This document shows, piece by piece, positions 23,501 to 42,200 of a stretch of 64,000 nucleotides of DNA (position 1 is the first letter of the stretch; each line of letters starts with the position of its first letter). This DNA is from a virus. A program made the translations under genes and the position numbers. The notes under the pieces are model-generated. The model was not told the DNA's origin and did no database searches. It worked only from the letters and a program-made list of their open reading frames with translations. The stretch is from the IMG/VR virus record IMGVR_UViG_3300031603_000003, positions 15,542-79,541 of that record; one strand, given 5' to 3'.

Positions 23501-26500
23501 TACGTGTATCACCTGCACGAACTATAACCTCGCCAATATCATTGATCATCTTGCCAAGTACCGTAGTTACGTGGGTTTTATCTTTAAAGCTACGGTTATT
23601 CAATATCTTATCTACCGCTGAGCGTACACCCTCGGAGTTTGGATTTCCCATGTTATTTATTGCTGGGAATAATACTTTTAGTCCGGGCATATCGTTCCCT
23701 AGGGTAACACCTTCTACTAACACCTTACCTCTGTTGAGTACGGTGACATCGTTTTCGACTTCACCTTCTACTTGTGTGGCTTGGTTGAGTAATGCTGCTA
23801 AGAAGAAATACTGCAATAGATGTACAGCTAGAAAGTATCTTAACATTTGTTCCTTCTGGAACTGTAGGTATTCACCTGACCTATCGGCTAATAGTTTAGC
23901 CATGTTCTCGTCTTCTTTCATTTCCTTGAACATATCTAACGTAGATATGTTGACTAACATAGCAGGATTACCAGTGCTGACTCCTTTACGATCAACAGCA
24001 CCATTGCGTAATGCTTCATAAAATGCACTATCTTCATACTTAGCAAGTCCGGAGGTGGCTTTACCTAATTCCGCACGATACATATCTTTAACTACTTCAG
24101 CAGCACCGGCTAAGCTGTCTAAGTCTTCGTTGTTGATTAGGTTACTCATGTTTAATGCGAGTTCTAACCGACTGTGATCATTAAATATCTTGGCATCCAG
24201 CAATGCAGGGGGTATCCTAGTAGCTGCGAAATACCACGCTGGGTGTAATATCTTATGAAAGTCCTGCGGCTGTGGGTCTACTTCTTTGCCATCATCCTCG
24301 TGTACACTAGCCATTAGGTCTTCTGGGAAGCTGAAGTCTGTGTAATTATTACGTACGAGCTTACTATTATTCTCTATCCATTTAGCATAGTAATTAGGTA
24401 AGTACCCGCGCCACCCGGTGAAGCCTTTCTTAGCTAAGTTCTTCATAGCTCTGTTGAAGTCAGCGCGTACGAACAATATACGCATGAACTCTCGACTATG
24501 TTCTTGCAGAGAGTACGCTGCTGCTATGGAAATACCATGTACATTGGAGTCCGTCAAGGAGATGGATGTTGGGATATCACTCTTCTGGAACACATTTGGT
24601 AGCAGTGTACCGAGGAACAGAGACGCTGCTTGATAGACGTACTGCATGTACTGATACGTACTACGTTCTATAAGTTGTGTAAGATTAGTAGCATTAAGCG
24701 TATCACTATCTCCTAGGTCACTAACTACAGCTTTACGCCAGGCATATATTTGGTCTCTGGTGGGGGTAACTATATCATTTAACAACCCGGATGCAAATAT
24801 AGCATTAGCACTTAAGTCTGGGGATACAGCTAGGAGTGTATCAAAGTCTACTGAGTACGCGAGGTCTTCCCTGAAGTACTTATTTATCATAAGTTGGAAG
24901 TCACTCTTCAGGTAATCGCGATCAACAAATATACCCGGTTTAGCTTTAGGCGCTAGGGTACGATTTGGATCTATCTTTAGCTTAGCCATTATGAGCTTCG
25001 CGGTATACTTATCGAATACGAGATTCGTTGGGAAGAAGTCCGGAGCTACCTTCTTCACATATTTAATCGAGGCACCGCCCACTGTACGTAGCTTCTCTTG
25101 CTGGTCGATGGTATTAGGATTGTGAATCATATCCAGTTCTACTGCGTACCATCCAGTTGTTCCTGGTAGGGTCTTAATCACTACGTTACGTACGGTAAAC
25201 TCTGTAGCACCGATAGCCTGTAACATTGGGTCATTGAACTCAACACGATCAGTGCCTAGGCTAATCATCGTAGCGTACGCGGCCTGCATAGCGACACCTG
25301 TTTGTGTTAATCTGATATCATTTAATCTTTCGATGAAATTGAAATCATTAGTATGGAGTGCCATGCTAACATTGAATTGCCCCATACCCATGTGTTGGTA
25401 TGTTGGGGTGTTGTACTGCGTTATATCTATAGGTACTAACTTGTTAGTGTACGAGACACTAACAGATTGAATAACTGTCTTATCTGTAGTTGGAGCCATG
25501 TCCGATGTGGAGCTAGCGAATACATAAGTCTTGGATTTAAGTTCGAGTTTCCCTACTTCACTATCGGCGGTCTTAGTGAACCTGGTTTCTAGTGAGTTTA
25601 TAAGGTTACTTAGTATACCTAGGCTACCGTCGCTGGTATCTGTTGGTAATTCAGCACCTAGCATGATAGACAAATCTTTCATAGTACTTGTCTGCGGGGC
25701 GATAGTATGCGCTAGTGGGTTGTTAATCCAAACTGTTTGAAGGTTATCGAACATGTCGGTGGCTCCCTGTAATTCTCCACGTATGGATGAATCGGGGAAC
25801 ACTTCTTTGGCAGTAGCCTTGTACAGGTTATTAGCTTCGGTTACGAGACGACGAAGCCCTGTGATAGTGCTAGCGGCGGCTTCGAATATGTCCAGTGGGA
25901 TATACTGGATGCCGGGCTTGGCCTCTAACCCTTTACGTAAGTCACTGCTGGGAGAGAATTGCTGAAGGAGTTTTAAGTTATCCAACATAGCGTCAAGGTC
26001 TAAACGTGCGCTCTTGATAAAGTTCAAAACACGCGTGGCTGGGGTATCCAGATTAGTAATCTGGTTGTATATCATTGTAACACCGCCAGCGCCGTCTGGA
26101 TTGTACGTGTCCCACCTTGAGTTCTTGCTGACCATGATAGGGTCTTCAAACTCTAAGAGTTGTGAACGATAGAATCGTATGAACTCCGGAGATTGACCTA
26201 GATCATCAGTAGTGTACAGCTGTACGCCTGCAGGTTCTTTGAGAGTTATAAGTTCTCCAGTCTGTGTAGCGAAGATGCCAGACTTAGCACTTACAGGACT
26301 ATACGCACGAGATCTGTGCAACACATCATAAATCTTATTGTTACTGATCATCTCCTGACGTCGCGGATTGGAGGTAGCCTCGTACCCTCGCATTTCTCCA
26401 TAGGGAAAGAAGTTGAAGAAACGGATCGTAAGGTACAGTTGTATTGAGTCCGGGTAACCGGGCACGGTATGAAACGATATACTATCAATAACTATAGGGA

Positions 26501-27830
26501 TTGGGAAGATAGCAGGTACTACCTCATCTTTGTTAAACTCGGCAGATATAGCTCTATCGATAAGTAGCTTACTGATTATCTTACTCTTGACCTGGGTAAA
26601 GGGTGCACGTTTAGCCATGGCTACTAAAGGACGTAGTTGTTCGTTGATAGCAGTCTTGCCGTTGATGTATAACGTAATGTTTATAGAAGGGCGTTGCGTG
26701 CTAACCGGTACAATAGGGTTACCATCCGTACGCATGCTATCAAACCCATAAGTTTGTCCAGTAGCATTATACCTTATAGCAGTAGGTGGTACGACGAATT
26801 CAAGATCACCTATACGGAATACATCTTCATCGTCTGCTATTTGGCTCTTAACTAAGCCGGGAGACGCGGCGTGCATACGATCTAATTTCTTATTGTACTT
26901 GAAGACGGTAGTTTGACCACGTGATACTTGTGGGGATGGCGAATCAGTAAGATCAGTACCTTCAGGTTCACGCATTATACGGTTTATCGCTTCTGGGTCG
27001 TTAATCTGGTTAAGCGCATTCTTCATGAATGTTCTGCCAGGATTAGGTGAGTCGAAGAAACCAACAGATGCGTTTAGAGCGTCGATGCGCTTTATTACAT
27101 ACCGATAAAATTCATTAACATCAATTACCCAGTCTGACTTATCTTCTGGTTGTATGTCGGTGTACACTGCTTTAGTACCGTCTACGACTTTACCTAAATG
27201 CCCATCAATACCGCGTTGTAATGTGTACCCCATGCCGTGATTGTAAGTAGCAACTTCGTTCAGGTACCACTGTACACCATTACGTCCATCTATAGTAATA
27301 TTCTTCCACTTATTATATATGTCGGTATGCGCATTGTTAAAGTCTTCGACTTCATATTTATGTGGTGTACCTTTTAACTCTTTAAACGTACACAGGACAT
27401 CGAACAGTTCATCGTCCATTCTGGCTGCTAACTCGTGCAGGATATTTCCCAGTATTATACGTCTACTGTCGTACTCACCGTCAATATTCATATTACCGAT
27501 GACACGGTATTCCTTAGCCCATATAGCAGCCACTGACCACAGGAGCCACATTAGCTCGTCCATGTCGGCCGGGAGTGCTGTGTTTGGATTCACGGCAATA
27601 CGCTCATAGGTATCAACTACTAGAGGACCTACTGTTAGGTTAATACCTAAACCTTTTAATGCTGTTTGGAAGTTCTCTGTCTCTCTTTGTGCCATAAGTA
27701 TAGCGTACTGGGGGTTCATCTGGTATCGACCTACTTGTCCGGCTCTATTCTCGTTACTAGTAAGTCTTTTACCGGTCTCAATAAAGGCCGCGGTCTTAAT
27801 TACGTCTTCTGGTCTTATGTATATAGGCAT
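20577..27830 (-). CDS. Giant baseplate hub protein with N-terminal lytic transglycosylase-like domain (2417 aa)
   Basis: FIETG...GQVGRYQM...ATYNHG match SLT motifs. The C-terminal half has gp27/gpD-like hub signatures (RIQPGTTVMVRLGYG; YQGSLVLRGDATIRP...VEEVIHSMSSSGGFITTI). Confidence 0.8.
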   Translation of the reverse strand: MPIYIRPEDVIKTAAFIETGKRLTSNENRAGQVGRYQMNPQYAILMAQRETENFQTALKGLGINLTVGPLVVDTYERIAVNPNTALPADMDELMWLLWSVAAIWAKEYRVIGNMNIDGEYDSRRIILGNILHELAARMDDELFDVLCTFKELKGTPHKYEVEDFNNAHTDIYNKWKNITIDGRNGVQWYLNEVATYNHGMGYTLQRGIDGHLGKVVDGTKAVYTDIQPEDKSDWVIDVNEFYRYVIKRIDALNASVGFFDSPNPGRTFMKNALNQINDPEAINRIMREPEGTDLTDSPSPQVSRGQTTVFKYNKKLDRMHAASPGLVKSQIADDEDVFRIGDLEFVVPPTAIRYNATGQTYGFDSMRTDGNPIVPVSTQRPSINITLYINGKTAINEQLRPLVAMAKRAPFTQVKSKIISKLLIDRAISAEFNKDEVVPAIFPIPIVIDSISFHTVPGYPDSIQLYLTIRFFNFFPYGEMRGYEATSNPRRQEMISNNKIYDVLHRSRAYSPVSAKSGIFATQTGELITLKEPAGVQLYTTDDLGQSPEFIRFYRSQLLEFEDPIMVSKNSRWDTYNPDGAGGVTMIYNQITNLDTPATRVLNFIKSARLDLDAMLDNLKLLQQFSPSSDLRKGLEAKPGIQYIPLDIFEAAASTITGLRRLVTEANNLYKATAKEVFPDSSIRGELQGATDMFDNLQTVWINNPLAHTIAPQTSTMKDLSIMLGAELPTDTSDGSLGILSNLINSLETRFTKTADSEVGKLELKSKTYVFASSTSDMAPTTDKTVIQSVSVSYTNKLVPIDITQYNTPTYQHMGMGQFNVSMALHTNDFNFIERLNDIRLTQTGVAMQAAYATMISLGTDRVEFNDPMLQAIGATEFTVRNVVIKTLPGTTGWYAVELDMIHNPNTIDQQEKLRTVGGASIKYVKKVAPDFFPTNLVFDKYTAKLIMAKLKIDPNRTLAPKAKPGIFVDRDYLKSDFQLMINKYFREDLAYSVDFDTLLAVSPDLSANAIFASGLLNDIVTPTRDQIYAWRKAVVSDLGDSDTLNATNLTQLIERSTYQYMQYVYQAASLFLGTLLPNVFQKSDIPTSISLTDSNVHGISIAAAYSLQEHSREFMRILFVRADFNRAMKNLAKKGFTGWRGYLPNYYAKWIENNSKLVRNNYTDFSFPEDLMASVHEDDGKEVDPQPQDFHKILHPAWYFAATRIPPALLDAKIFNDHSRLELALNMSNLINNEDLDSLAGAAEVVKDMYRAELGKATSGLAKYEDSAFYEALRNGAVDRKGVSTGNPAMLVNISTLDMFKEMKEDENMAKLLADRSGEYLQFQKEQMLRYFLAVHLLQYFFLAALLNQATQVEGEVENDVTVLNRGKVLVEGVTLGNDMPGLKVLFPAINNMGNPNSEGVRSAVDKILNNRSFKDKTHVTTVLGKMINDIGEVIVRAGDTRSIDTALAGFGYTDIDAELLNVSLDKKLASQVHNNWDNHFIQAFPAFKMFLIEEDSTDWGLFDDFYTYDGIQSIDVIDSKHSASSTAIIRLSNVTGKLTSPGISQLFRDTDDPKNLERFRIQPGTTVMVRLGYGPDYRNLPVVMYGAVTEVIPGPILEIKIQSFGVELLSEMSRSITSGSMESHIGEAVLTTLSETSGLKHFGRWSIHHGKSEEFIAASNDLTKHLYTLGRIAGLSGTGVSDVDSGLLDKVKKKVVGGSAASQDVLGLYDGDVGAGTKDFVDSLIDGTNQYAMLLNFGNSLYDNIYVNNKRPQYYGFVNMVPFFNRFDDKDSFYWHINNQTTWDALWEQALYLGDYIVRPLPYNEGAYLFGGTAPRATLYFGPRDGQYKASDDPYHITGKGDEFATAIRQRILQTEEELTNSNQEDWELDPLTGLNNLEQDMQDAARKLGNAALWASKFNPVKSRFDNLFNDYYSPPLKQAAERLSNAGLPHLAQFALKYASKIMEEESFTSKTHPVSVFTQLLCWNMGDIKGNIIPQFYSALDETLSGPVTLTDRFLAGNRARRLVIFTAVKAEWAIALRADMPQFLANIKSNNYQVTGTKSQHLEDLIQLLDDDGQTGSESYQPIVEHHFASSDSHIISNEITVTEDLLSNKVSVYYPTSVKDSGVSAPHEWDKENKVISSISNELDANYIREYVSFQKNCDTSIFYDFTGLNTLGEDFVDATAGWKHAQPQAKMLADQILMNQIKPMYQGSLVLRGDATIRPWHYIHISDAVSQMSGVIEVEEVIHSMSSSGGFITTIKPNLVTSMRNTAAAIDTELMGLNATLNGLTRKVGTAWTVLKVGGELAGAKYAVKTSFKWLVEKGIASELGKRAVSFLTAFTSMFVIVGTTIAAGGIKYKTMEMKQFINAANMQLGNAPIIMSLLQYNGKAYSAGLEGIQYNRNASTIAISDIIDANYWDGIVTQWGLMNGEIGL

Positions 27831-27997
27831 TAGCTCATCTGTGCTAGTTTAATTATGTTAAGTAAATCAACATCGTTGATATATATGTCTGCGTTTACGC
27901 CATAACGCTCAAATAACATTAAACGAATACTGTCAATCTGTTCTTGTACGTCAAGCTCATATGGCACATCAGTTAACTTTATCATTATCGTAATCAT
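27830..27997 (-). CDS. Small hypothetical protein, 55 aa (missing from ORF track)
   Basis: MITIMIKLTDVPYELDVQEQIDSIRLMLFERYGVNADIYINDVDLLNIIKLAQMS*. ATGA overlap with the RNAP stop and TAATG overlap with the hub start; fills the gap exactly. Confidence 0.8.
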   Translation of the reverse strand: MITIMIKLTDVPYELDVQEQIDSIRLMLFERYGVNADIYINDVDLLNIIKLAQMS

Positions 27998-30900
27998 CTT
28001 ACTAAAGAGCCAGCTCTTCGGAGGTAATCTGATGAGCTAATAGCTGTGTGTCTGCGCTTCTTATTATTATATTCGTAATGTGGACGTTCAGGTACACGCA
28101 TACCTTTAACCAATTGTGGTGCATTGTCTGGTGAGTTCTTCAGTTTGTCCATCAACTTATCCTTCAATGTGGCACTCTGCTCTTTTAGGTGCACGCTCTT
28201 GCGATTACGGTACCCTTTGGTAACCTCCGACATATTTGGTGTGTCATACTGTTCGCCGCCTTTTCCGATTGTCTCCCCTACGATCTGGTTCCCAGTGTTG
28301 GGATCGAAGAATAAAGCCAGTCCGGCAACAGTTAATACTTTGCGTCCATGGTTACGTAGGAATGAGTTCTGATCTAAGGCAAAAACTGATTTAGTATATT
28401 GCTTAATCTTCTCTGTAAAGATACGTCTAGAGTTGAATTCCTCTGCCAGGGCACCACCAACGTGCCCTTCCAATTCTAATAGTGTCTGGAATACGCTAGC
28501 ACTACTACGTGCAAGACCCATACGCTTGAGCTCTGGCGCTATCATCTGGGACATCTCAGTACGTAGTACCTGATCTCTGGAGATTTGACTTTCAAGGGAA
28601 CTTACGGTGATACCTTTAGTTTTATTAGCTAGATCATCCGCCGCCCCTACTGCTTGCATTAAATCTCCTAGTTTAGCGGCATATGTATCGTCTCCTCTGC
28701 TGTTAGCATCTGTTTGTAATTGGACAAGTGTACTTCCAAGCTTATGTACAGCTATACTAGCAGTATGCCAGGACTCTAATAGTTTACCGGCTCGTAGTTG
28801 TGCTTTCTCCAGGGTAGCATCATTCATGGATGCTAGATCTTGCCTATTAGCGTGGTACGTTAATGTTAGTTTACGATCTTCACCCATACGTTTAGTAAAG
28901 TAATCTATGGATGCGTCTAGAGATGTTCTATCTTCTCCCCAGGTAACTGTATTAAGATGTCCCATCATCTTGATTAGAGATGTAACAGGGTTGCTACTAG
29001 TCTTTTCTATACCCGTACGTTGCCCTAGTTCAGCTACAAATAGGTTCATTACGTGCATGTTGCTATAACCACCCATCAAATCACTAGGAGAATGCAAGTA
29101 ATCGAGAGCTTCAAGTACTGAGTTAGATGTTATACCTTTGGCGTGTAATCCTACCTCTTCCATCATTCTATTAAACATACCGCTAGCAGCTTCACGCTGT
29201 GGGCCTTCATTTAATAAGCTACCAAGTTGACGCATGACGGAGTTCGGGCCGTACGCGGCGGCATATAGTTTCTTGTGGAACCCACCAATAACTTGCGTGA
29301 ATGACTTCTGTGTCATGTACGCCAGCTGCGTGTCAACCCTGCTATCCATCTCTAGTTGTTTCTTGAAGAAACTAGCAGACAGCGCTTCGGATGGATCGAC
29401 AAACAAGTGTGGATTAGTACCCATAGCGGCTTTATCGAGCTTGTAGAGCTGTCTGGTTCCTCCGGGAGAACTTTCAGTGGCGAAGTTTGCTTCATCGAAT
29501 ATATCGGCTAGGTATGGTGTACCGCCATCTCGTTCAATCTGTATCTTCTGCCAGTCGATCAACATATTGGTATGGTTTTCGTGACTCTGTTGGTACATTG
29601 TACGCTTGATGCCAATCTTACCTTCGCGGTCTCTCCATCCACCTATGTTGATGATAGCGGCAGTATCACCATCCTGATCAGCTCGTAGGAACTTCATCGC
29701 TAGTGGGTCTAGGAACACAGATGAGCGGGTGGAGAATCCTGCACCACCGTCATACACGGCACCGACTTGTTCTGGAAATATGTAAGTACCTCCGGCCAGC
29801 ACCATTCCTTGGATGTGGGATGGGTTACGATCACGTAATTGTTTACCACTGATCTCAGCAGTAAAGAATTGGTAAGCTTCCTGATAACTAAGATCTCCAG
29901 TCTTAACTGCTTCTTTTAGCTGTCTTGCGCCTGCTTTTCCGAATACAAAACTCTCGTTTACACCAAGTCCACGTGCACGTACTACGCCAGTTACTGGGTC
30001 TATCGGGCTACCGCCTCCAGTTATTCTGTTTAGTATAGTAGATAACTGAAGCTCGCTTTGTTTGCTAGCGACAAACTCTTGACCGAGACCCTTCTTTAAC
30101 CAACCGGGAAGCTTAATCTTGGAGTCTTCTAGTACGCCTAGTGATAACTGTTCTTGCATAGATATGAGTGTTGGGAGGATACCCATGCTATTCATGATCT
30201 TACCGTGTGACATGCTTACGGTACTAGCTGTAGATCTGAATTTAGATTGCTCGAATAAGTGACCTAGTATGCCTAAAGATGCACGATCTACTATCTCGGA
30301 GGTGAGTTCACGGCGTCTGTTGTACTCACGCATGAAGTCTTCTTCAGCTGTTTCTTTAATACCAACATGGAAGGCAGTCTGAAAGGCACTAATAGCTTCT
30401 GCACCTTCGAGGAACTTAGAACTAGCACCTGCCATAATAGCTAACCCATCTTTGTCGTGTGGCCTGAGTATACCTGTTAAGGCTGGGAAGATGACTTCAT
30501 CTATAATGTTGGGCCCGCGCTTGTCGGCGTTGCTTTCTATAAATTCACGGAATGCTTTGAATTTAGCCTTGTCCATACTACCTGCGGACTGTAACTCTCC
30601 ATGTATAGCGAGATCTTTGACTGCACCCATGTGTTTTATGGAGAGTGTCATGTTCTCAGTGCCGATACGCTTCTTGATAGCCTTACGGAACGCATCACGC
30701 TCTTCATCGTTGAACTTAGACATGTCGATCTTATCCAACATTTCATCTACACTGTCTAGTTTGAAACCTCTGTACGCTGGATCATTCTTCTCTAGTGCTC
30801 CGAACAGATTATCGCTGTCGAAGAACGCGGCACGTACTTGACTGATACGTGATTCAGCCATACCAGCAAGTTGTATATATTCTCCGGTTTGTGTATCCTG

Positions 30901-33900
30901 AAACTCTTGCCCAAACTGTGCCAGCATGCCGGCTGCTTTCATCTCCGGCGTAGCCCCGGCCCATTCCTGGGTAGTGAAATCAATATCAAATATAGATGCT
31001 TTACGTAGCTTTTCGAGTGACTCCTCTAGAGCCTTGGATCCAACTTTAGTAATCTTCTTCTTTAGTACCCTGTTACTCTCACCCTGCATGTACGCGGAGA
31101 TGAGTTGTACGGTCTTGGCTGCGTCGCGGACTGGTTGTTTACCTTCCCTGTTGACATAATTAAAGCCTAACTTAGGAGCATAGAACCCTGCCAAGTACCC
31201 GAAGTCTTCCATTGATCTTATATCATTGTGGCGGTTGCCGATACTGTCCATTACGATGGTGTTGAACATAGCCAGAGCTTTAGGTTTAAGACTAGGTAAG
31301 CCGTTGGCTTGTTCTGGGCGCATGTACATCATCCAGAAATCAGTGGCATCACTTGTTACGGACATCGACGTTAGAATACGTAGTGCTTGTGAGGTCATGC
31401 TCAGATGACCGTACTGTACGGGAACTATATCAAATAGTGCAGCTGATGTATCATCACCTACCTGGCTTTTCCAACGCTTGAAGTGTCTAGCTTTTAGCTT
31501 ATCGCCGCTGTTAGTAGCTTGCTCTAGTAATGTACCTAATGCTTGTTTCTGTTTAGTAAGACCAGCCGCCCATTGCGATACTACCTTGGCATCATTATTC
31601 CACAGCTTTTTGGCGGACTTGTTAAACTTATCCTTTACGTAACCCCAGGTTACACCGGCTTCCTCGAGCATGTTCTCAAGGACATGTAGGTCCACCCGCT
31701 CAAGTACAGTTGTCTCAATCTTAGCTGGGATCTCTGGTACATATATTATATGATCAACCAGGTTACCGGCAGCATTAGTGGTTTTAATCTTGCGTTTTAC
31801 ATACTTTACCTGTGATGCTACATCAGGTCCTAGTAAGGTGGAGAATGCTTTCTCAAGTGTACGTTTAGTGTGGTCTGGTTCAGAACCGTCAAGTACTAAC
31901 TTGAGTTGTATACGATTAATCTGGTGTATGATATTGGAAGCTATCTCATTACGATTACCACCAAGCTTAATGCCAGATGCAGCTTGGGTGTACAGTGGAT
32001 CTATATTTAGTCCACGACCAAAGCCCATGAGTGCGTTAATAGAAAACTTAGCTGTCTTATCACCGTAGAATGCCTTGGTACCTACACCTCCGGGGACGTA
32101 CTGCGCTAGGTTAACCGTCAGGTACCCAGTATCTGCATCATAATGAAGGGACTGTGGTATACCTGGAATTTGACCATGATACCTAGTGTCCGCGGCTATG
32201 CTTCCTATAACAGCACCATCAGCCTTAGCGCCGAGACTGGAGCGCGTCATTCCGCCGAATACTCTATCCTTATTGCGTACTGCTATGTCACCTCCTGGAG
32301 CCTTACCAGTTTTGATCCAGTTATTAACTAAATCCCAACCCTCTTGTTGACTATTTAGTCCAAGAGTAAAACTTCCATCAAGATGTAAGTGTAATCGTTC
32401 TTGTAGTAAGCCATCAGCTATGACCCTGTTAATGGCATTACCTATTGCTTTGTGCTTACCGATGCCTGACAGTACTTTAACTAACTCTGCTTCAGGTAAA
32501 GCACCTGCAGAGACTGCTAGGCCGGCAGGGGATGCGGAAGATAAGTTAAGTTTAAACTGAGCCTTAACTTGCTTGATACCTTTGTACGAACTAAGGTTTT
32601 GACGTAATTCGTCCGTCACTACGAGCCCTGATTCAAATACAGGTGCGAAGCTCTCAGGCATGAGCGTCATGACTACCATTTGGTGTGTGTGAGCGAGCTT
32701 GTTATCACTATTAATGTTATCAAGTACTCCGTACAGTGAAGAGGCTACACCTTTAGCCATTAAATTGTAGTTAAGCTTTTCACTAGTACCGAGGCGGTCA
32801 CTAATGAACTTATTAAACTTATCAGTATCATCAAATGATCCACTATACTGCGCAGATACATATTGTCTGATAGTAGCACTAGCCTCTGTCTCTAGTACAC
32901 CACCATGTCCATAGATACCAGTCATTGGTCCATTGGGGTTCAAGACACGGGCGGAGAGTACCTGGTACTTTTCACGAGAGAAGTTGTTCAGCAGACCGAA
33001 GGGCATTACACCCTCCAGTGAAAGTAATGTACCGCGAAGGTCGGAGGCTGAATGTCTAGGTTGGGACATCAACGATAGACCTAGGCTATGTGCCGGCGCG
33101 CCGTTGACTCCCCACTTGTCATAGATACCGAAAAGTTCTTGATTCTGTGCAGCAATATCTAGACTACGATGCCACTCGGCGCTTTGTCCACCCTTCTGCA
33201 GGTAGTTGGCTGCTACTTCAGTGTACTCCCGTATTCTACGTTTCTCCCTGGAGCCCATATCATTGTACAGTCTTTTAATACCGAAGTAATTCAGTACAGA
33301 TACCATGGAGTCAAATTGTGCTAAGTGACCAGTAGCCGTACCATCAAATTTGAGATGTAAGTCGTTGGCTTGAATAAGTCCTAGTATACGATTAGCATCC
33401 TTTATACGTCCCTGGTCAAACCCGCGCAATACACCTGCTTTATTCTGGTGTGTTGATGGGTTAGCTATATTCTGCGCGTACTGCAGTATATCTGAGAACT
33501 CATCCGTGGACACATTGTAGATATCTTTGAAGATGTCAGTCTGTGACTCAGCTTTATTCTGTCCCATCTTTAGTACATGATAGGCACTCTGTATATTAAA
33601 ATGAGAAAAGGTTTCACTTCGTGGATCAGTATTAAATAACTTACTAAGTATATTCTTGAACTTGGTCTTAAGCTTTCTAGTTAACCCTAACTCCGAGTTC
33701 AAGGCTCTTTCCATCAACGGGATATCAGCTTGTGTATGTGCTTGTCCTATGAAGATTACAGGGAATAGGTCATCCCCTCTATCAGCAGACATGGCGTTTA
33801 TACCGGTAGACATGTTATCCAACATCTGTATTAACATCTTCGCCGGTGTACTGGTGGTCTCTTCAAGTGCTTTAATTATCTTATTAGCTTCGCCGCGGTC

Positions 33901-36252
33901 GCCTACTTGTTGTAACACCCAGTCCTTGACACGTTGGGTTAACACTTCATCCATACCAAAAGCGTTAGGTTTAGCTAATAGGGCCGTCTTGCCCTTTGGC
34001 ATGAACGTGACTCTGTCCTCAAAGAGGTTGATAGTTGTTTGCCCACCCTGCCATATCTCAGAACTAGGATGTCGAGCTACCTGCTGCAGTCCAGCGGACT
34101 GAGAGGCCATGGAGTGAGAGAACTCCATATCAAATGCAATTCCTATTCCACCTGTATCTAGTAATTCTAAACCACGTTTACCTTCTAACACTTTTACATA
34201 GTCGTTGTATGAGGCTGCGTTTCTACGAAAGTCCATCTCTTGCGACTGTACGGTCAAAGCTGTACGGAAATCAGCTCCAGTAAGTTCAGCCGGTGACAGC
34301 TTAGTTGAGTCCTTACGTGCTAATCTGTTCCATAGTCCCTCCGTACGGTCAGGGTTAGTAAACGTTTCAATGAAATCATTTAATGCTTTTTCCGCTGTAC
34401 GCTCGATAGAATCCATACGGCCGGCTGTATAATCCACGAGACCATCTAGATCTGGATTGAACCCGCTAGCTCTATTCAATACTGTGCGCTGGTACAGTGT
34501 TGAAACCTGTGCTTGTCCGCCAAGAGTAGGAGTCACGACGCCACGTACGTTTATAGGTACTAGTACACTAGCGTTTAACCCACCACTAATGTAGCTTAGT
34601 TTTAAGTGTTGTTGTGTTATTCCTGCGTTATCAAACGTATAACCTTCTACTTTGAATTGCAGTTTCTCTAGCAAATCAGTTAATACTTTTAGCTTCTTCT
34701 GATCTGCGCCGGCACCAAGTACGGCTCTATTCTTGGCGTCAGCCTTAGCTCTTAGTACAACCTGCTTTATATTATCTAGTTGTTTACCAAGACGTTCAGC
34801 TACGACACCTGGATTATGAAACTTATCATATACAGCACCTTGCCCTAAGACCCTGTACATATCTTTGTGCAGTCTCGTGCGCAAACGTTCTAGATGATTG
34901 GGGTTTCCATTAGCTAAGTCTAACCAGTTACGTATATCTCCAGATGATCCTAGAGTGAACGCCTGCGGTTTACCGAACTTTACCTGTGGATTCACTACCT
35001 TGGTGAAGGTATCGACTAGCCTTTCTTTGTTAGCTTGGTTAAGTTTCTGCGCTGTCTTCTTGAGAACCTTCACAACCTGTGAAGACGGAGCCTGCGATGC
35101 TTGCATCTCGGAGAATCTAGTCTCCAGTGCGACCGCGTTTTGCCGGATATCATCCATCGTAACGAACCCAGCTTCTAATGTAGCGATAGGTTGTCGACCA
35201 TACACTTCGGAGTACGCGTTAGCGAAAGCGATTAGCTTACTATACTGTGCCATTTCTCCGGGAGTTTCGGCAGCCTTGTATAGATCTACAGCTAGTAGTT
35301 CAGCTACGCCACGTACGGATGATTGTGTAGTTTTGTTAGTGGACATGCCATCTACGAGTATCTTCCGTGTTTGCATGTACTGTTCTTTACGAAATGCACT
35401 AAGCTTATCGGCTGCCTCAGACTCTACGGTCTCAATTACCTGTCCAGGTAATTTACCAGCATCGATATGTTTCTTAAGTTCCATGACCATGATGGCATTT
35501 TGTAATGCCTCATCACTGGCGGTTCTGAAATTGTATACTACGTTACCGTAGCTCTTATCCTTTAGTACTAAAGCTAAGCCTGCCTTTAACCTAGCGTTAT
35601 ATCTCTTATTTTGTGCAGTATTTGGGGTAAACAACTCATCTTGTATAGCCAAGGTGGTATGTTCGTCCATGACGTGCTCGCCGCCTAGAACTTGTGTTGC
35701 TAGATTATTGGGTAAATCACCAATAATACCCTGTAATTTCATCAACTTAGCAGAGCTTTTAAACAGTATTTCATTAGCATCATTATTAACTAACGGATGC
35801 GCGCTGTTCACTCCGTAAACATTAGCCCAATAGCTGGAGATTGGATTAGCTAGTGTGTGTGCATCGCGTTTACTGATCTGTTCTACGAACTCACCAGCTG
35901 CGTTGCGTTTCTTACCGAACTTTCGTATATTCTTTTCTTGTTCTCGTGCTCGTTTATACCCAGCAATCATCATTGCCGTGTTGGATCCATCTGCCTTAAC
36001 ATACGCGGCGTTAGTCTGGATACCAGCGTTTGCGAAGATTTGATCGGCGGGACGATCTCCTGCTTTTAATACTTCCGGTACATCTATGATACGACTTAAT
36101 ATATCGTGTACGGCTGACTTAAATGATCCAGGTTCCTGGGCCGCCCACGCTTGGTGAATAGCTCTAGAGCCTTTGACTATACCAAGAATAGCTGGGAGCG
36201 CTAACGCCGCCGACAGTAGTACATCTTTAGTCTCTTTTTGCTTATTAGCCAC
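27994..36252 (-). CDS. Single-chain two-barrel (DPBB) DNA-dependent RNA polymerase, probably virion-packaged, with embedded DEDDh exonuclease (2752 aa)
   Basis: Beta'-like LRDRNPSH and VFLDPLAMKFLRADQDGDTAAI; beta-like LLSLEGVMPFGLLNNFSR, MVVMTLMPESFAPVFESGLVV and VGTKAFYGDKTAKF; exonuclease FDMEF / ADIPL / HLAQFD. GTG start preceded by AGGAG. Confidence 0.85.
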   Translation of the reverse strand: MANKQKETKDVLLSAALALPAILGIVKGSRAIHQAWAAQEPGSFKSAVHDILSRIIDVPEVLKAGDRPADQIFANAGIQTNAAYVKADGSNTAMMIAGYKRAREQEKNIRKFGKKRNAAGEFVEQISKRDAHTLANPISSYWANVYGVNSAHPLVNNDANEILFKSSAKLMKLQGIIGDLPNNLATQVLGGEHVMDEHTTLAIQDELFTPNTAQNKRYNARLKAGLALVLKDKSYGNVVYNFRTASDEALQNAIMVMELKKHIDAGKLPGQVIETVESEAADKLSAFRKEQYMQTRKILVDGMSTNKTTQSSVRGVAELLAVDLYKAAETPGEMAQYSKLIAFANAYSEVYGRQPIATLEAGFVTMDDIRQNAVALETRFSEMQASQAPSSQVVKVLKKTAQKLNQANKERLVDTFTKVVNPQVKFGKPQAFTLGSSGDIRNWLDLANGNPNHLERLRTRLHKDMYRVLGQGAVYDKFHNPGVVAERLGKQLDNIKQVVLRAKADAKNRAVLGAGADQKKLKVLTDLLEKLQFKVEGYTFDNAGITQQHLKLSYISGGLNASVLVPINVRGVVTPTLGGQAQVSTLYQRTVLNRASGFNPDLDGLVDYTAGRMDSIERTAEKALNDFIETFTNPDRTEGLWNRLARKDSTKLSPAELTGADFRTALTVQSQEMDFRRNAASYNDYVKVLEGKRGLELLDTGGIGIAFDMEFSHSMASQSAGLQQVARHPSSEIWQGGQTTINLFEDRVTFMPKGKTALLAKPNAFGMDEVLTQRVKDWVLQQVGDRGEANKIIKALEETTSTPAKMLIQMLDNMSTGINAMSADRGDDLFPVIFIGQAHTQADIPLMERALNSELGLTRKLKTKFKNILSKLFNTDPRSETFSHFNIQSAYHVLKMGQNKAESQTDIFKDIYNVSTDEFSDILQYAQNIANPSTHQNKAGVLRGFDQGRIKDANRILGLIQANDLHLKFDGTATGHLAQFDSMVSVLNYFGIKRLYNDMGSREKRRIREYTEVAANYLQKGGQSAEWHRSLDIAAQNQELFGIYDKWGVNGAPAHSLGLSLMSQPRHSASDLRGTLLSLEGVMPFGLLNNFSREKYQVLSARVLNPNGPMTGIYGHGGVLETEASATIRQYVSAQYSGSFDDTDKFNKFISDRLGTSEKLNYNLMAKGVASSLYGVLDNINSDNKLAHTHQMVVMTLMPESFAPVFESGLVVTDELRQNLSSYKGIKQVKAQFKLNLSSASPAGLAVSAGALPEAELVKVLSGIGKHKAIGNAINRVIADGLLQERLHLHLDGSFTLGLNSQQEGWDLVNNWIKTGKAPGGDIAVRNKDRVFGGMTRSSLGAKADGAVIGSIAADTRYHGQIPGIPQSLHYDADTGYLTVNLAQYVPGGVGTKAFYGDKTAKFSINALMGFGRGLNIDPLYTQAASGIKLGGNRNEIASNIIHQINRIQLKLVLDGSEPDHTKRTLEKAFSTLLGPDVASQVKYVKRKIKTTNAAGNLVDHIIYVPEIPAKIETTVLERVDLHVLENMLEEAGVTWGYVKDKFNKSAKKLWNNDAKVVSQWAAGLTKQKQALGTLLEQATNSGDKLKARHFKRWKSQVGDDTSAALFDIVPVQYGHLSMTSQALRILTSMSVTSDATDFWMMYMRPEQANGLPSLKPKALAMFNTIVMDSIGNRHNDIRSMEDFGYLAGFYAPKLGFNYVNREGKQPVRDAAKTVQLISAYMQGESNRVLKKKITKVGSKALEESLEKLRKASIFDIDFTTQEWAGATPEMKAAGMLAQFGQEFQDTQTGEYIQLAGMAESRISQVRAAFFDSDNLFGALEKNDPAYRGFKLDSVDEMLDKIDMSKFNDEERDAFRKAIKKRIGTENMTLSIKHMGAVKDLAIHGELQSAGSMDKAKFKAFREFIESNADKRGPNIIDEVIFPALTGILRPHDKDGLAIMAGASSKFLEGAEAISAFQTAFHVGIKETAEEDFMREYNRRRELTSEIVDRASLGILGHLFEQSKFRSTASTVSMSHGKIMNSMGILPTLISMQEQLSLGVLEDSKIKLPGWLKKGLGQEFVASKQSELQLSTILNRITGGGSPIDPVTGVVRARGLGVNESFVFGKAGARQLKEAVKTGDLSYQEAYQFFTAEISGKQLRDRNPSHIQGMVLAGGTYIFPEQVGAVYDGGAGFSTRSSVFLDPLAMKFLRADQDGDTAAIINIGGWRDREGKIGIKRTMYQQSHENHTNMLIDWQKIQIERDGGTPYLADIFDEANFATESSPGGTRQLYKLDKAAMGTNPHLFVDPSEALSASFFKKQLEMDSRVDTQLAYMTQKSFTQVIGGFHKKLYAAAYGPNSVMRQLGSLLNEGPQREAASGMFNRMMEEVGLHAKGITSNSVLEALDYLHSPSDLMGGYSNMHVMNLFVAELGQRTGIEKTSSNPVTSLIKMMGHLNTVTWGEDRTSLDASIDYFTKRMGEDRKLTLTYHANRQDLASMNDATLEKAQLRAGKLLESWHTASIAVHKLGSTLVQLQTDANSRGDDTYAAKLGDLMQAVGAADDLANKTKGITVSSLESQISRDQVLRTEMSQMIAPELKRMGLARSSASVFQTLLELEGHVGGALAEEFNSRRIFTEKIKQYTKSVFALDQNSFLRNHGRKVLTVAGLALFFDPNTGNQIVGETIGKGGEQYDTPNMSEVTKGYRNRKSVHLKEQSATLKDKLMDKLKNSPDNAPQLVKGMRVPERPHYEYNNKKRRHTAISSSDYLRRAGSLVR

Positions 36253-39200
36253 GTGTTCTCCTTGATATCTCGCGAGCAGAGTCTCTCTGGATTTCTACTT
36301 CTAGCTTGATACCTTCAGCCCCTGCTGATGGTGTGTCCGTAACTTCGACGGTAAATGTCATGCCAGACATAGTTAATTGCTGAGTGATATATCCTTGTAT
36401 CTCTGGTATATCTATATCTACTGAGCTTTGCCCTGAAGAAGGTGCATGTATATCTAATGCCCTGGACTTTAACAGACTTTGTTCAGCGGCTTTAACCTGG
36501 TCACGCCAACCTAACCCAAAGTCATGAGAATCAAGGCCGGCTGATTCCACCGTCTTCATTTCAAAGAAGTCCATGTTAGCGGACGGTTGCATTATTGGAT
36601 CAGTAGCTAATGGGCGTTGATGTGTTTCGAAGTATTGAGTAGCATCGAAGGCACTGTCTCTGCTCTCGTTCCAGGTCTTGGATAGTACGCGCGCCATGCT
36701 GGCATCAACCTTGCGTAAGATCTGTTGTCGTCTTTCCGGATCACGTTCGTTCATGAACGCTGTAAAGAATGGTCTATCCCAGTACGGGATGGCGGAGAAG
36801 GTAACTCCTAGATCTAATTGTGCACGATATGATGTGTCACCGGCGGTATCCTGACCACCCCACGGTGAGTGGTGCCCGTAGTTAGGTGTGCCCTGCATAT
36901 TGTACGCTTGATACGCGTAGCGGTTAGTTTGATTCATCTCTTCCGGGTTCTGGGCGAACGCACCAAAGCCAACAGCAGTCTGGCTCATTTGTCTCAAGTA
37001 CCTACTATCTTTCGTGAGGTCATACATCCGTGAAGCTTTGTCGTACTTAACGACATCGAAGTATTCAGAGTATTCACTGAGTTCTTCGAAGTGGTCAGGT
37101 TTGTATTCTGTACCGGTGATAGTTCTAGCGAGTCCGTGCGCTGTACCGTATGCAGCACCTACGGCTGCTCCAACAGTGGCACCGAATGGTCCACCGACTA
37201 GTGCTCCACCAGCTCCCCAACTCAGAGCTCCCTGTACGGGCCCGGTAGCTGATAGCGCTCCGCGTGTCCATGGCTTGATGAATGATTCAACTGGGTTTCC
37301 CCATCCTTGAAAGCCTTTACCTAATACCACTTCGTTATCGTACATTTCCTCTGGTGAATACACACCGAAAAACTTCGTATGTAACGGAGTACGATAACTC
37401 ATGAGCTTTTCCCAAACAGCACCAACGGCCCGTTCGGTTAATGAATATTCAGCTGCAGCTCTGATGTTCTCATTCAAGTTGTACGAGGTGTATTCAGCAC
37501 TGGGTGCAATCCAATCTGTACCTTGGAATCGTTTGTCATACATTTCATACTTGTTAACTACACCTTTAGCATGTCTCTTTAACATGTCTAATCTATTGAC
37601 CTGGCTATCAGTGAGCATACCGCGTTCTGCTTGTTCTTCGACGATTTGTCCTATTTCACGAAACTCTTTACTGAATGGGGATGTATTAAGTAATACTTCG
37701 AAGCGATCAGTGTAACTATAACCACCGGCAGCTTGACCGTATCCTTCTTCTAGATAACCGGCCGCCATACCGCGCGCTTGGTTAAGCGTGTTGATAGAGT
37801 CGTCCCACATGTCCGCGTTGTATCGGGTGAAAAACGACTTAACCTGTGAAGGATCATCTCGATTGACGTAGATTATCTTACCTGACTGTGCACCCATGAT
37901 GTGCATATAAGCATTCAACTGCACAACATTTGCTCGTTTTGGTGCACGGAGTTTACTAAAACCTGCGGCGCTGATAGATTTGATTTCACCAGGTGAGCCG
38001 ACTTTGTCCACTGTAGGAAAAACTAAATCAACATAGGATGATAATCTGTTCTCTGGGTCAGTGATTAATGCTTCTGTCTTGATTGCGCGGTTCTCTGCTT
38101 TCAATGCGGTCTGCACCATACGATGAATAGCAGTACCACCCTCCATAATCTCAATGGCATCCTCATCGAATTGGTTTAATCCTAAGAACCCCATAGCCTG
38201 ATCAAATGCGCTGGAACCTAATCTCGAGATACCGGACGGGAAATCAATGGTTGTTTCGTGTGTAGCTTCGTAGCCAGATCCTGGAAGAATATATTCCCCT
38301 AAAGGACGTTTGGTATTGTGTGTACAAACACAGCCCACACAGAAACTATCATCGGTATCTACTTCGAATCCGTATACGAGACCATCGTAACGTTCTCTCT
38401 TGATCCATTCGATACCTAGACTCATATATTGTTTGTTACCGATTACGCGCAATATAGTGGAAGGTAATTCATTACCTGTAATCTGTCCTCTATCGTATAC
38501 ACGTTCGCCTGTTAATATATGGTGTAACGTAACTGCTGATTTACCATATACTTGCACAGTGTTGCCTTCGAGAACTCCATGAATATGAAGTTGTGCTAAG
38601 TGACTCCAGATCTGATATGCTAAGTTTCGTGTAGGCATTTCAAACGTAAGTTCCATGCCTCTCATGTTAGTAGTCAGAAACTGTCTAGTGAACTGCAGTA
38701 ATGCAGGAGTACCCACAGCGTACAATTCATCTGGTATACCGTACGTCTGCATCTGTTCTAGTAACTCAGCTACAGCGCCGGAGCGGAAGCTATTATCTCT
38801 GTTTACTGATACTCCAAAGTATGTATCTACTAGGTGTACAATCTCTCCATGATCTATCGGGCAGTTGATTAACTTTATATGTTCATCTTCATACTTACCG
38901 TACGCCAGTATGATACCTAGTGTAAACGCATACCCACCTGTGACTACACCAGAACGTCTAGTAGACATTTCTGTGTGCACAGCTGGCGCTGTTGTACGTA
39001 AGTCACGCAGTGGGTATCTTACTCTATGTTTCTTGGTAAGATTCTCCGCTTTAACATAATGTCCATTGTCACTTACTAGGAATGGATGTTCACTAGTAAC
39101 ACGGATTAATGTATCAGTATGTTTTAACTTAATAACATATACGCGTTCCTTGACTGGTCTAGGTAGAATAGCGGATACCGGAACGTAACGACCACGTGTG

Positions 39201-42200
39201 GTACGTACTAGATCTCCCTCCTCTATTTCGTCCGCGCGCTTGAGGCCGCCGAGTACTTCAATTTCAGTGTCATCGGTAACACAATAAGGGTCACCAGTAC
39301 GGAATTCCTCAGGTAACCATGTTGGCATCTGATTAGGTATAGGGTTAGCCTGGTTGAAAGATGTACGTGGTCTAGGATAGAGTCTACGAATACCTTCATT
39401 AAGAAATAGTAAATCTCCAAGGTTAGCGTCCCATAATTTACGGGCCGTGGAGTCTATGGCGCTAGAGCTGGTTAAATATGTTTCATCTACAAATGGCTCG
39501 TCACCGCCCCAGAATGCTTGAGAGCTTAGGAACCCAGTTAACCCTGGTGCCTCGATTAAACCACGGTACACTGATTCAGATATAATAGCACGTGGGCTAG
39601 TAGCTCTGGCAATATATTCATCAGCTACTACTCCCATACCTGGTATAATTCGCGGGGCATCAGTGTCGAATCCCCCAAGTACACCTTTGTACTGTGAGAA
39701 CCCTGCTAACGCTTTACCCTCATGTGCACCTTTGCCTTTACCTGTGACGCCGGCGCCAAGTTCGGAGCGGGCATCCTCTAGGTGCATTAATGAGTTTGTG
39801 CCCATTGGATGTAGGAAGTTATACAATCTACCTGCAGTGGCTCCTAATATAGGACCAACCAGTGGTACTTCACTGAACGGTACATCAGGTTCCATATACG
39901 GTCTATCGAAATAATGTTTACGTGTTAGGTACTGTGGATCAATCAGATCGCCAATTGAGAAATCAATTATACTTCTGTCTTTGAATATGAACTCTTCCCA
40001 TGGTGAACCGTACTGTACCGGTGATGATGATACTTGTGCTTTCATACGGGCATACCAGTTTGGAAGAACGGCCATGGTGCGTCCACCTTCTATGGGCGTA
40101 CTTCCCAAAGTCCAACCGGCACCCTTACGTACGGGAACTAATTCTTTACCTGAATAGATATCACGTAATTCATCGTATGACTTAGTCATATCCGTGACGA
40201 ATGGAGCTGCTAGCGGAATGATAGATAGAAATCCGAGAGGACCTTCAGCCATTGTGGGTTGCAACCACCGGTTAATTACAGCTCCTGCTAACGCACCGGG
40301 TGCGCCTCCAATGGCGAATCCTATAGCTGCGCCTGGTAAGGTGGATGTAGACTTAGGCATCAACCCTTCTAAGTACTTGGCACCCGCTGTTACACCTGTA
40401 ATGTCATAAACTTTTGCAGCTAACAATCTCAAGCGTACGGCTTGATCGGCGACGCCTACGGTAATACCCTCATCCAGGGCAGTACCTTCGAACACTGGTA
40501 ATGTATCAGTAACAGTGTCAGCAAAGTCGTACGTGAGTTCTATTCCAGCCATTAACGCAGCACGGCGACCCATCAAACCAAGCCAAGAGCTGTGACCTTT
40601 GTCGCCTCTTTGTGGTAATATATCTTTATATTTACCACGGTCCCACCCAAGTCCAACCCAGTCCAGGACTGTACCGAATGTTTCATAAGTGTATGTGGAT
40701 CCAAACTTAAACCAACCACCTATGGAGTTGTCCACTGCTACGAACTGTGTCTCGGATGTGAGTTTCTTAATCTCCGATAGCTGGGCTGCACGACCCACGT
40801 GCTGATCATTGAACTGTTTAAGTGGATGGATTTGTTTTAGATAGGCAGTCGCTTCGTCGCTGTGTTGTGCTTCTTGGACTATTTCGATTAGCTTGTTTAC
40901 TGTAGGACGGTACTCAGACTGTGCCTCGGTATTGGTCTTCATACCCATTAACGGTCCAAGGTCCTCTGCCTGCAGAAGTTTCTTGTACGTTTTGGAATGT
41001 TTAACCATTTGAACTAGGCTTAGTTCTTTATCACTAAAGCGTGAACCGGTTCTGGCTTTAACTGCAGCTATAGCTCTATCTACAGCTGTAGACCCATCAG
41101 GAGTAGAGAAAGAGAGCTCGAAGTTAGTACTTACATCTGCTATGTACCTCAACATCTTTTGATGTGGACTCTCGCCTCTACCAGACCCTTGAAGGAAACT
41201 TTCAGGACTATCTAATAAATGTTCTTTGATGTATGCACTATTGGATACACTAATACTAGCCTTGCTGACGGGGCTATCACCAGTCTGGGCCATTAAATAC
41301 TTTACTACCTTACGAGACTTTACTACATCATCTTGTATCTCAGCGAGGAAATCTTCCGTAGAGAGTTTAGTACGGTTACCGCGTATAGCGCTGCGTATGT
41401 CTACGTTTGGTATGTTATCTAATAGTAATGATCCATGTCCGGTAGTTAACAGTGTTGAATATATAGAATCACTACCAAGGAATACCTTGTCGTACGCTTC
41501 TTTCTCAATACCAGCGAACATAGTACCAGCACCTGCTAACTCAACCATTAGTTGCTTGCCCATGAGCGGTGATATCTTAGCCTTACTATCGAATTTTGCT
41601 ATGTTACTCTTTATCTTATCTAGCATGTAGTGGGGCTTAGTAGGATCATTTGGCATTAGTGCGGAAGATACCATCTCGAAGATAGAAGCGTTAGCACCTT
41701 GGCTAGCTCCGAGGTCGAACTTCTGATGCAACCATTGTCGGAAAGGACTTGTTTTGTCCATTCTGTCTGGATCTCTTGGTGGAAGGAACCCTGCAGATTG
41801 GTAAACTATCTTTCCACCCTTCTTTGACAGTGCAGATGCGAAAGGCCGTATGTTGTTAGCGAGCTCAACGGTATTCTGCATAGCTAGATCTGGACCAAAC
41901 AGTGTGTAAGAACGCTTACCTGGAGTTCGAATTAGTACGCCAGGTAGGTTACCTTTACCTCCAGCTTGTCCACTAAACTTAAATGCTTGGCGTGGGCTGT
42001 CCGCGTTCATCAAGTACGCACCAGACTTTAAGCCCTCGTCCGTTACGTTTGCACCAGTCATACCAGATATGGGTAATGTATTATGTATAGGTATGAACAT
42101 TGGTAGATCTTGACCTAGCAATCCGCGTATTGGGTATAATGTATCAAGAGCAGGACCTAGGCGTGTCGTCTTACCTAGACTACTTATAGCTTTATCTGCT

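Follow-up and report, generated by a model that had tools for sequence, protein, structure and literature searches.

The window analyzed here is a 64,000-nucleotide stretch (positions 15,542 to 79,541) of the IMG/VR virus record IMGVR_UViG_3300031603_000003, a 79.5-kb contig of 42% CheckV completeness whose source genome we label G000, and the gene under study is the giant open reading frame (ORF) at 27994-36252 on the minus strand, which encodes a protein of 2752 residues. Nearly all long ORFs of the window lie on this strand and the gene is the middle one of three consecutive giants, with an 8-nucleotide overlap between its start and the stop of the upstream one. As its homologues open with the same MADKxK...LPxxLGIVK sequence, the GTG start is right; full-length homologues (2500-2800 residues) have the same N- and C-termini. 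PHROG matches in the window include tail sheath, major head protein, baseplate wedge and tail fibres, and they identify the virus as a contractile-tailed phage. The initial annotation had proposed that the giant protein is a single-chain two-barrel RNA polymerase, packaged and ejected for early transcription, and had placed it in the tail module of such a phage; the sheath, tube, major capsid protein and baseplate matches bear out its location within a block of virion genes.

That proposal drew on five collinear motifs resembling motifs in the RNA polymerase subunits beta and beta', and all five are present at the residues it gave, in a beta-like-then-beta'-like order (Table 1). They are motif 1, an acidic block of the 'LPE...E' or ED type, a G-x-K or K...K block, LRDRNPSH with its R-x-P, and a loop ending in DQDGD, which is the only D.D.D in the protein. 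Relatives are few: residues 1060-2250, run exhaustively with HMMER against 1.84 billion cluster representatives, returned only 8 (647-2793 residues, 6 of the 8 being 2500-2800 residues long; identity at most 31%), a cluster look-up added the full-length member P0010, and scans of IMG/VR and of metagenomes recovered one and the same contig, G001, of 197,958 bp and rated 100% complete. No relative was found in a scan of GTDB genomes, in tblastn searches of 50,697 phage records with the members P0001, P0008 and P0009, or in word-indexed homologue searches. One homologue (P0007/P0011/P0010) occurs as two pieces of 1949 and 696 residues on one contig and as a single 2634-residue protein on 16 others, the split copy probably reflecting a frameshift or an assembly error.

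An alignment of nine full-length sequences, 18-30% identical, has 57 invariant columns out of 2752, and these fall into four groups: 1) an exonuclease-type set comprising D708, E710, D843, D876, H976 and D981; 2) in the beta-like part, P1084, G1086, N1090, R1093, Q1097, P1199, D1372, K1393, G1431, Q1444 and R1447; 3) in the beta'-like part, G2095, G2097, D2192, D2194, D2196, D2250 and G2323; and 4) both termini, with K4, K6, S14, P20, G24 and K27 at the N-terminus and P2651, N2652, G2663, G2665, G2666, E2667, D2670, P2672, D2698, P2721 and P2724 at the C-terminus. Besides the peaks at the N-terminus and in the last 110 residues, conservation peaks internally at 1041-1120, 1401-1480 and 2161-2200. 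The expected conservation of the motifs among homologues holds in part: no change is seen in the three loop aspartates, in K1393 or in the core of motif 1, whereas K1402, H2146 and E1207 vary, the position of E1207 being an acid in most members and the 'LPE...E' acidic block being conserved. The loop itself takes the forms DQDGD, DFDGD, DFDRD, DLDGD and DWDGD, with Q, F, L or W as its second residue; the DbDGD form is typical of two-barrel polymerases (see also PMC7824862). By an estimate from residue frequencies, the bare string D.DGD should turn up in about 3% of proteins of this length, and it is the invariance, together with the sliding-window test described below, that raises it above chance. 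A head-module protein of G001 (6969-8381, plus strand) contains SDFDGD while its window homologue (55329-56936, minus strand) does not; we read this occurrence as chance, and as a caution that the bare motif is not diagnostic. The G000 and G001 contigs are collinear, and the giant gene is the fastest-diverging gene of their structural block (25% identity versus 30-69% for its neighbours), keeping its catalytic-type residues and its termini despite this divergence.

Along the chain, the predicted order (Table 1) is a hydrophobic N-terminal helix, a DEDDh-type exonuclease-like domain, the putative polymerase core at about 1060-2450 and a candidate C-terminal anchor. The first 40 residues have a conservation of 0.58 against a mean of 0.38 for the protein. 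In the exonuclease-like domain the invariant residues are ordered as an ExoI D-x-E, an ExoII D and an ExoIII H-x4-D; the domain has no Pfam match, its profile search against the PDB gave chance-level results (E 2.4), and its comparisons with E. coli DnaQ and RNase T were not significant (hhalign to DnaQ gave E 0.39, with ExoIII paired with the ExoII of DnaQ). DnaQ-family DEDDh exonucleases typically proofread DNA synthesis. The conserved fusion of such a domain to the putative core could therefore also speak for a true two-barrel polymerase with another task than transcription, such as making primers or DNA, copying RNA, or acting mainly as a motor that pulls in a genome of about 190 kb, an option to which we return with the gene content of the related phages.

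Table 1. Features of the giant gene and of its two giant neighbours in the window; nucleotide positions are those of the window, residues those of the encoded protein.
Feature	Residues	Nucleotides	Strand	Remarks
Giant gene under study, whole ORF		27994..36252	-	2752 aa, GTG start, TGA stop
Hydrophobic N-terminal helix	~11-29	36166..36222	-	only Kyte-Doolittle window >1.6
DEDDh-type 3'-5' exonuclease-like domain	~700-985	33298..34155	-	ExoI FDMEF, ExoII GQAxxxADIPLM, ExoIII HLAQFD
Beta-like part of the putative polymerase core	~1060-1460	31873..33075	-	motif 1, LPE...E block, K1393 block
Motif 1, LLSLEGVMPFGLLNNFSR	1076-1093	32974-33027	-	includes M1083
Acidic 'LPE...E' / ED-type block, MVVMTLMPESFAPVFESGLVV	1192-1212	32617-32679	-	includes E1207
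G-x-K / K...K block, VGTKAFYGDKTAKF	1390-1403	32044-32085	-	includes K1393, K1402
Connector between the putative barrels	~1461-2084	30001..31872	-	conserved blocks, e.g. G1533, V1539, F1543, D1608, E1647, P1653
Beta'-like part	~2085-2350	29203..30000	-	KGFGVNES block, R2142-x-P, DP...ADQDGD loop, YLTQKxFTGxIGG block
LRDRNPSH	2139-2146		-	includes R2142 (R-x-P)
Asp-loop motif, LDPLAMKFLRADQDGD	2181-2196	29665-29712	-	ends with DQDGD
Codons of D2192-Q-D2194-G-D2196, putative Mg-binding triad	2192-2196	29665..29679	-	three Asp invariant in 10/10 covering sequences
Conserved C-terminal ~110 residues, candidate tail/hub anchor	2641-2752	27997..28332	-	conservation 0.48-0.59, the protein's highest
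Upstream giant, 0305phi8-36 gp145 homologue		36245..43660	-	2471 aa; blastp to gp145 5.5e-17
Downstream giant, hub/lysin, 0305phi8-36 gp147 homologue		20577..27830	-	2417 aa; blastp to gp147 3e-14

We compared the putative core with RNA polymerase using bacterial-only profiles, that of beta' being built from 80 sequences of 80 species. In hhalign comparisons of the family with E. coli beta' (E 0.08) and with the 80-species profile (E 0.023) the best local match is beta' 430-468, the NADFDGD block. Likewise, a block hidden Markov model (HMM) of beta' 418-472 scores best at the aligned loop in each of three members of about 20% mutual identity, P0001, P0009 and P0008; the score is reached by fractions of 0.016, 0.003 and 0.025 of shuffles, respectively. 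In a sliding-window test the positions of the initial annotation were taken as pre-specified and compared with about 110 windows of the same family alignment. The likeness of the R-x-P...DQDGD block to beta' was sustained by this test (window 2139-2204 ranks 1/106, z about 5.6), as was that of the acidic block to the ED block of beta (window 1190-1218 ranks 1/111, z about 5.6). A language-model search of the ESM Atlas with residues 2075-2350 gave as the top named cluster the RdRP family PF05183 (0.85), with a catalytic cluster of the DP2 subunit of PolD at rank 16 (0.81), scores below 0.9 serving as leads only; a 1191-residue piece gave no usable match. Taken alone, homology of the protein to the two-barrel (double-psi beta-barrel) polymerases is in our judgement probable, and a polymerase is the best reading of these comparisons, with statistical support that is real but thin and short of proof.

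Three other identities of DQDGD were tried and rejected: an EF-hand, as Gly at position 6 and Glu at position 12 are missing; a HAD motif I, as neither a hydrophobic strand ahead of it nor a Thr is present; and a Toprim DxD, as the upstream E-G strand is missing and Pfam gives no signal.

Several results weigh against the polymerase reading. 1) Two of the five motifs did not hold up as equivalents of beta: motif 1 is not above the sliding-window null and is paired by hhalign with a different beta segment, 462-495, and the K...K block ranks 97/108. The upstream beta' block is likewise not above the null, and for beta regions A, D, F, H and I neither block HMMs nor forced-window hhalign comparisons produced a signal. 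2) The second lysine of the K...K block varies among homologues, and K1393 is about 800 residues from the Asp loop, far more than in known single-chain enzymes. 3) Nothing relevant came from scanning the protein and every family member with Pfam (to E 10) and PHROG models, from six-frame searches of G000 and G001 for PF00623, PF00562, PF05183, PF24846 and PF00940, or from PDB sequence searches with the whole protein, the family profile and two motif fragments. 4) All hhalign E-values are weak (0.006-0.5). 5) AlphaFold2, run on nine-sequence alignments, gave no usable model (pLDDT 47.6 for residues 1060-2250 and 41.3 for 2075-2350), and Foldseek and VIA-align comparisons of the low-confidence 1060-2250 model returned only long-helix or random matches and were uninformative. 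6) The protein that occupies the same genomic slot in a related phage lacks the Asp triad (see below), which implies that the structural job of the slot does not need a polymerase. As to the third point, curated RNA polymerase family models also miss many accepted phage members (PMC10770324).

The same results can be accommodated by a tape-measure or ejection scaffold that carries an exonuclease along with an acidic metal site unrelated to polymerases, the DxDGD belonging to a nuclease, a Toprim-like, a HAD-like or a structural Ca/Mg domain and the beta-like motifs being coincidental. Motifs 1 and 3 at the level of the null, the silence of all RNA polymerase models and the missing AlphaFold2 fold are what such a scaffold would lead one to expect, and the termini are the most conserved parts of the protein, as in tape measures. 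We nevertheless hold this explanation to be unlikely. The loop is of the DbDGD form with three invariant aspartates, and R-x-P and D-P precede it at a beta'-like spacing; the features of an EF-hand and of HAD motif I are absent from it, Pfam gives no Toprim or HAD match even to E 10, and the language-model matches are to two-barrel polymerases.

The slot of the gene can be defined through Bacillus phage 0305phi8-36, with which the structural module of the window is collinear: the major capsid protein matches at 1e-41, and further matches comprise the protease, the sheath, both tubes, the chaperonin gp144, gp145, gp147 and baseplate J. In that phage orf146 lies between gp145 and gp147, which are homologous to the two giant neighbours of our gene; orf146 is annotated as a 'hypothetical tape measure protein' and was detected in virions by mass spectrometry, as was gp145. 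From this collinearity and the gp145- and gp147-like flanks it follows that the giant gene occupies the orf146 position, so that the initial annotation, which had it between a tape measure and the hub, needs correcting: the gene is in the tape-measure slot itself. The assignment of orf146 as tape measure was made from tail length (Hardies et al. 2007, PMC2147016), and among its relatives only the last ~60 residues stay alignable (PMC2147016). The highly conserved C-terminus of the giant protein fits a role in this slot, both proteins being fast-diverging with a conserved C-terminus. Unlike our protein, orf146 has no D.D.D and shows no detectable similarity to it; hhalign comparisons of the family with the single sequences of 0305phi8-36 gp146 and of the YonO-like orf99 gave nothing. 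This slot-mate, assigned as tape measure and devoid of the triad (PMC2147016), is a further fact on the side of the scaffold explanation. The phage 0305phi8-36 has, in addition, a separate RNA polymerase of the YonO/RdRP type, orf99 (PF05183, E 1e-20; PMC2147016, PMC7824862).

The slot also bears on whether the protein reaches the virion at all. A polymerase that is made late and merely sits in the tail operon, without being packaged, would be compatible with the GenBank labels 'virion structural protein' or the like for the slot proteins of cultured phages (WH1 gp095, KLEB27-3 gp034; see below) if these are homology transfers. It is nonetheless a very improbable account: the gene belongs to a compact late structural operon and overlaps the genes on either side, the 0305phi8-36 slot protein and gp145 are in virions by mass spectrometry, and the conserved termini suggest assembly contacts.

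With the upstream giant as an anchor we found counterparts of the slot protein in cultured phages, the first being Bacillus phage vB_BauM_KLEB27-3. Its slot protein gp034, of 2434 residues and annotated as 'structural protein', has an ExoI-type VYDTE near residue 95, TPFGFFNPMAREN near residue 1118 and NRYPT...ADYDGD at 1892-1937. Its counterparts in vB_BceM_WH1 (gp095, 'virion structural protein') and Edson (GAKEdson_0920) share 27% identity with gp034, and their loop sequence is ADHDGD. The best beta' match of this slot family is to residues 422-466 (33% identity over 45 columns, E 0.02-0.037), and its two best beta matches, though weak (E 0.10 and 0.16), are ordered as in beta. The beta' profiles thus have their best match at the loop in two independent slot-protein families, which again tells against an unrelated metal site in a scaffold. 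Between the two families BLAST detected nothing, whereas hhalign gave four weak matches that fall in the same order: ExoI (E 0.12), ExoII (E 0.006), motif 1 (E 0.06-0.19) and the beta' block (E 0.53), motif 1 being the top match to KLEB27-3 gp034. The Bacillus proteins (2434-2515 residues) are similar in size to ours, occupy the same slot with a gp145-like giant and a hub/lysin giant on either side, and carry ExoI/ExoII, PFG..N..ARE and NRYPT...AD(Y/H)DGD with matching order and similar relative positions. The two families may well be remote homologues with the same architecture, a relationship that falls short of proof. They differ in that the exonuclease is N-terminal in the Bacillus proteins and internal in ours, with ~700 residues before it. 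The giant protein of the window is an especially diverged branch, marked by its internal exonuclease, the ~700 residues ahead of it and its Gln at loop position 2. A search of the literature brought up no publication that reports a polymerase or an exonuclease for these slot proteins.

Gene content is informative as to which task a polymerase in this slot could have. KLEB27-3, WH1, Edson and G001 have a slot protein with the DbDGD loop and no PF05183 gene, the reverse of 0305phi8-36, and Moorella phage MTATph1, in which a transposase interrupts the slot gene, has neither. Across the five genomes other than MTATph1, a tiny sample, the slot-protein loop and the YonO-like gene are apparently complementary, which suggests equivalent roles; the distribution fits a role in transcription to the extent that five genomes allow. 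G001 also encodes a family-A DNA polymerase that carries its own exonuclease, a RecD2 helicase and a ribonucleotide reductase, and has no other detectable RNA polymerase. These points, including the complementary distribution in its tiny sample, argue against a two-barrel polymerase devoted to priming, DNA synthesis, RNA copying or genome uptake, as does the fact that the characterized virion enzymes of the superfamily are all DNA-dependent RNA polymerases (PMC10770324; bioRxiv 10.1101/2020.03.07.982082). On its side, beyond the exonuclease fusion, are the PolD DP2 and RdRP clusters as nearest language-model neighbours and the inclusion in the superfamily of the DNA polymerase PolD and of RNA-dependent enzymes (PMC10770324, PMC7824862). 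On balance we give such a task a low probability, a little below that of the scaffold.

The observations made here are the motifs and their invariance, the order of the domains, the synteny, and weak links from profiles and from the language model; from them we infer a fold, a catalytic activity, presence in the virion and ejection. In the scenario that we favour, the gene belongs to an uncultured relative of Bacillus phage 0305phi8-36, contractile-tailed and with a genome of ~190 kb, and the giant protein would be made late alongside the tail proteins and be incorporated into the particle, in the lumen of the tail or at the hub, together with both flanking giants. Its chain would run from the hydrophobic N-terminal helix through the DEDDh-type domain (~700-985) and the polymerase core to the C-terminal anchor of ~110 residues. 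The core (~1060-2450) would be a diverged single-chain two-barrel polymerase of the beta/beta' type, with beta-like segments followed by a beta'-like barrel bearing the D-x-D-G-D loop. Upon sheath contraction the protein would exit via the tail tube and transcribe the first phage genes from the entering DNA, independently of the host RNA polymerase, while the putative exonuclease would trim a nucleic-acid 3' end. The giant protein is thus probably an enzyme delivered with the DNA, and the whole chain of propositions, namely a tape-measure-slot virion protein that combines a DEDDh exonuclease with a highly diverged two-barrel polymerase and is ejected to start transcription, has in our estimate a somewhat better than even chance of being right. 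More tentatively, and with the balance of probability tilting the other way, one may extend this to the lineage of ~200-kb contractile-tailed phages as a whole: their tape-measure-slot protein might be an exonuclease-coupled two-barrel polymerase of a deep clade invisible to current family models, starting transcription via the tail tube, perhaps pulling the genome in, and replacing the free-standing YonO-like polymerase that 0305phi8-36 keeps.

Placement in the tape-measure slot also changes the closest precedent, which the initial annotation had sought in the crAss-like phages and which is now gp96 of Thermus phage P23-45. This protein is a tape-measure-fused two-barrel RNA polymerase of the virion that transcribes the first genes (Chaban et al. 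2024, PMC10770324), and the giant protein, if correctly interpreted, would share with it the single-chain two-barrel design, encoded by the tape-measure gene of a long-tailed phage, and a beta-like barrel ahead of the DxDxD barrel. The differences are substantial: P23-45 has a non-contractile tail, its polymerase makes up the N-terminal ~1200 of 5002 residues, it has no exonuclease and there is a non-virion paralogue, gp64, whereas our phage has a contractile tail and its protein an internal core with a DEDDh-like domain before it; a search of G000 and G001 with an HMM of the family core found no paralogue. With tblastn the protein matched nothing in the phage records, which should include P23-45. 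The crAss-like virion RNA polymerase (phi14:2 gp66; crAss001 gp47) is also a giant single-chain two-barrel enzyme that is packaged and ejected and is encoded near giant virion genes (bioRxiv 10.1101/2020.03.07.982082), but crAss-like phages have short tails, a DFDxD motif and no exonuclease, and their enzyme shows no sequence similarity to ours by tblastn. Cellular beta/beta' and the YonO/QDE-1 enzymes of the RdRP type share with it the R-x-P...DbDGD, an acidic block of the 'ED' type and the beta-then-beta' order; they differ in that our protein has no significant match to their models and a connector of ~750 residues between the putative barrels. A clamp, a bridge helix and a trigger loop were not identified in it.

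To our knowledge, delivery of two-barrel polymerases by the virion has been shown in few systems, namely crAss-like phages, phiKZ-like jumbo phages and one Thermus siphovirus, and we know of no described RNA polymerase with a permanent 3'-5' exonuclease partner. If active, the giant protein would extend tape-measure delivery of a polymerase to contractile tails, add a permanent 3'-5' exonuclease partnership, reveal a polymerase clade unseen by Pfam, PHROGs and BLAST, and raise the mechanical question of how a 300-kDa enzyme passes through a tail tube. A clearer signature in the same slot of KLEB27-3, WH1 and Edson, which are cultured phages, makes the idea testable at the bench.

The neighbourhood offers some additional observations. 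The upstream giant has a Hint/intein signal at residues ~1460-1782 (Intein_splicing, E 4.5e-5) and a Cas4/PD-(D/E)XK-like nuclease region at ~1822-1962 (phrog_1706, E 1.8e-13), and its sole tape-measure match is weak (phrog_8462, E 0.0027). The downstream giant matches the 1954-position 'endolysin' family phrog_20474 at E 8.9e-50 and KLEB27-3 gp035 at 2e-17 in blastp; its homologue gp147 has been described as a T4 gp27 hub that is enlarged and bears cell-wall hydrolase domains (PMC2147016). In G001 a large array of tRNA genes lies on the minus strand (L091-L093, about 122-132 kb and 150 kb), a k-mer search of this genome for a promoter-like intergenic motif recovered only tRNA genes, and the large terminase (L095, 4930-7194) carries an intein-splicing signal. 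Finally, a small, conserved ORF that encodes 55 residues (27830-27997, minus strand) lies between the giant gene and the hub/lysin giant and overlaps both, its start with the stop of the former and its stop with the start of the latter. It has a clearly alignable counterpart of 57 residues in a relative (L002, 18004-18177, plus strand), and its product could be a chaperone or an adaptor for the giants.

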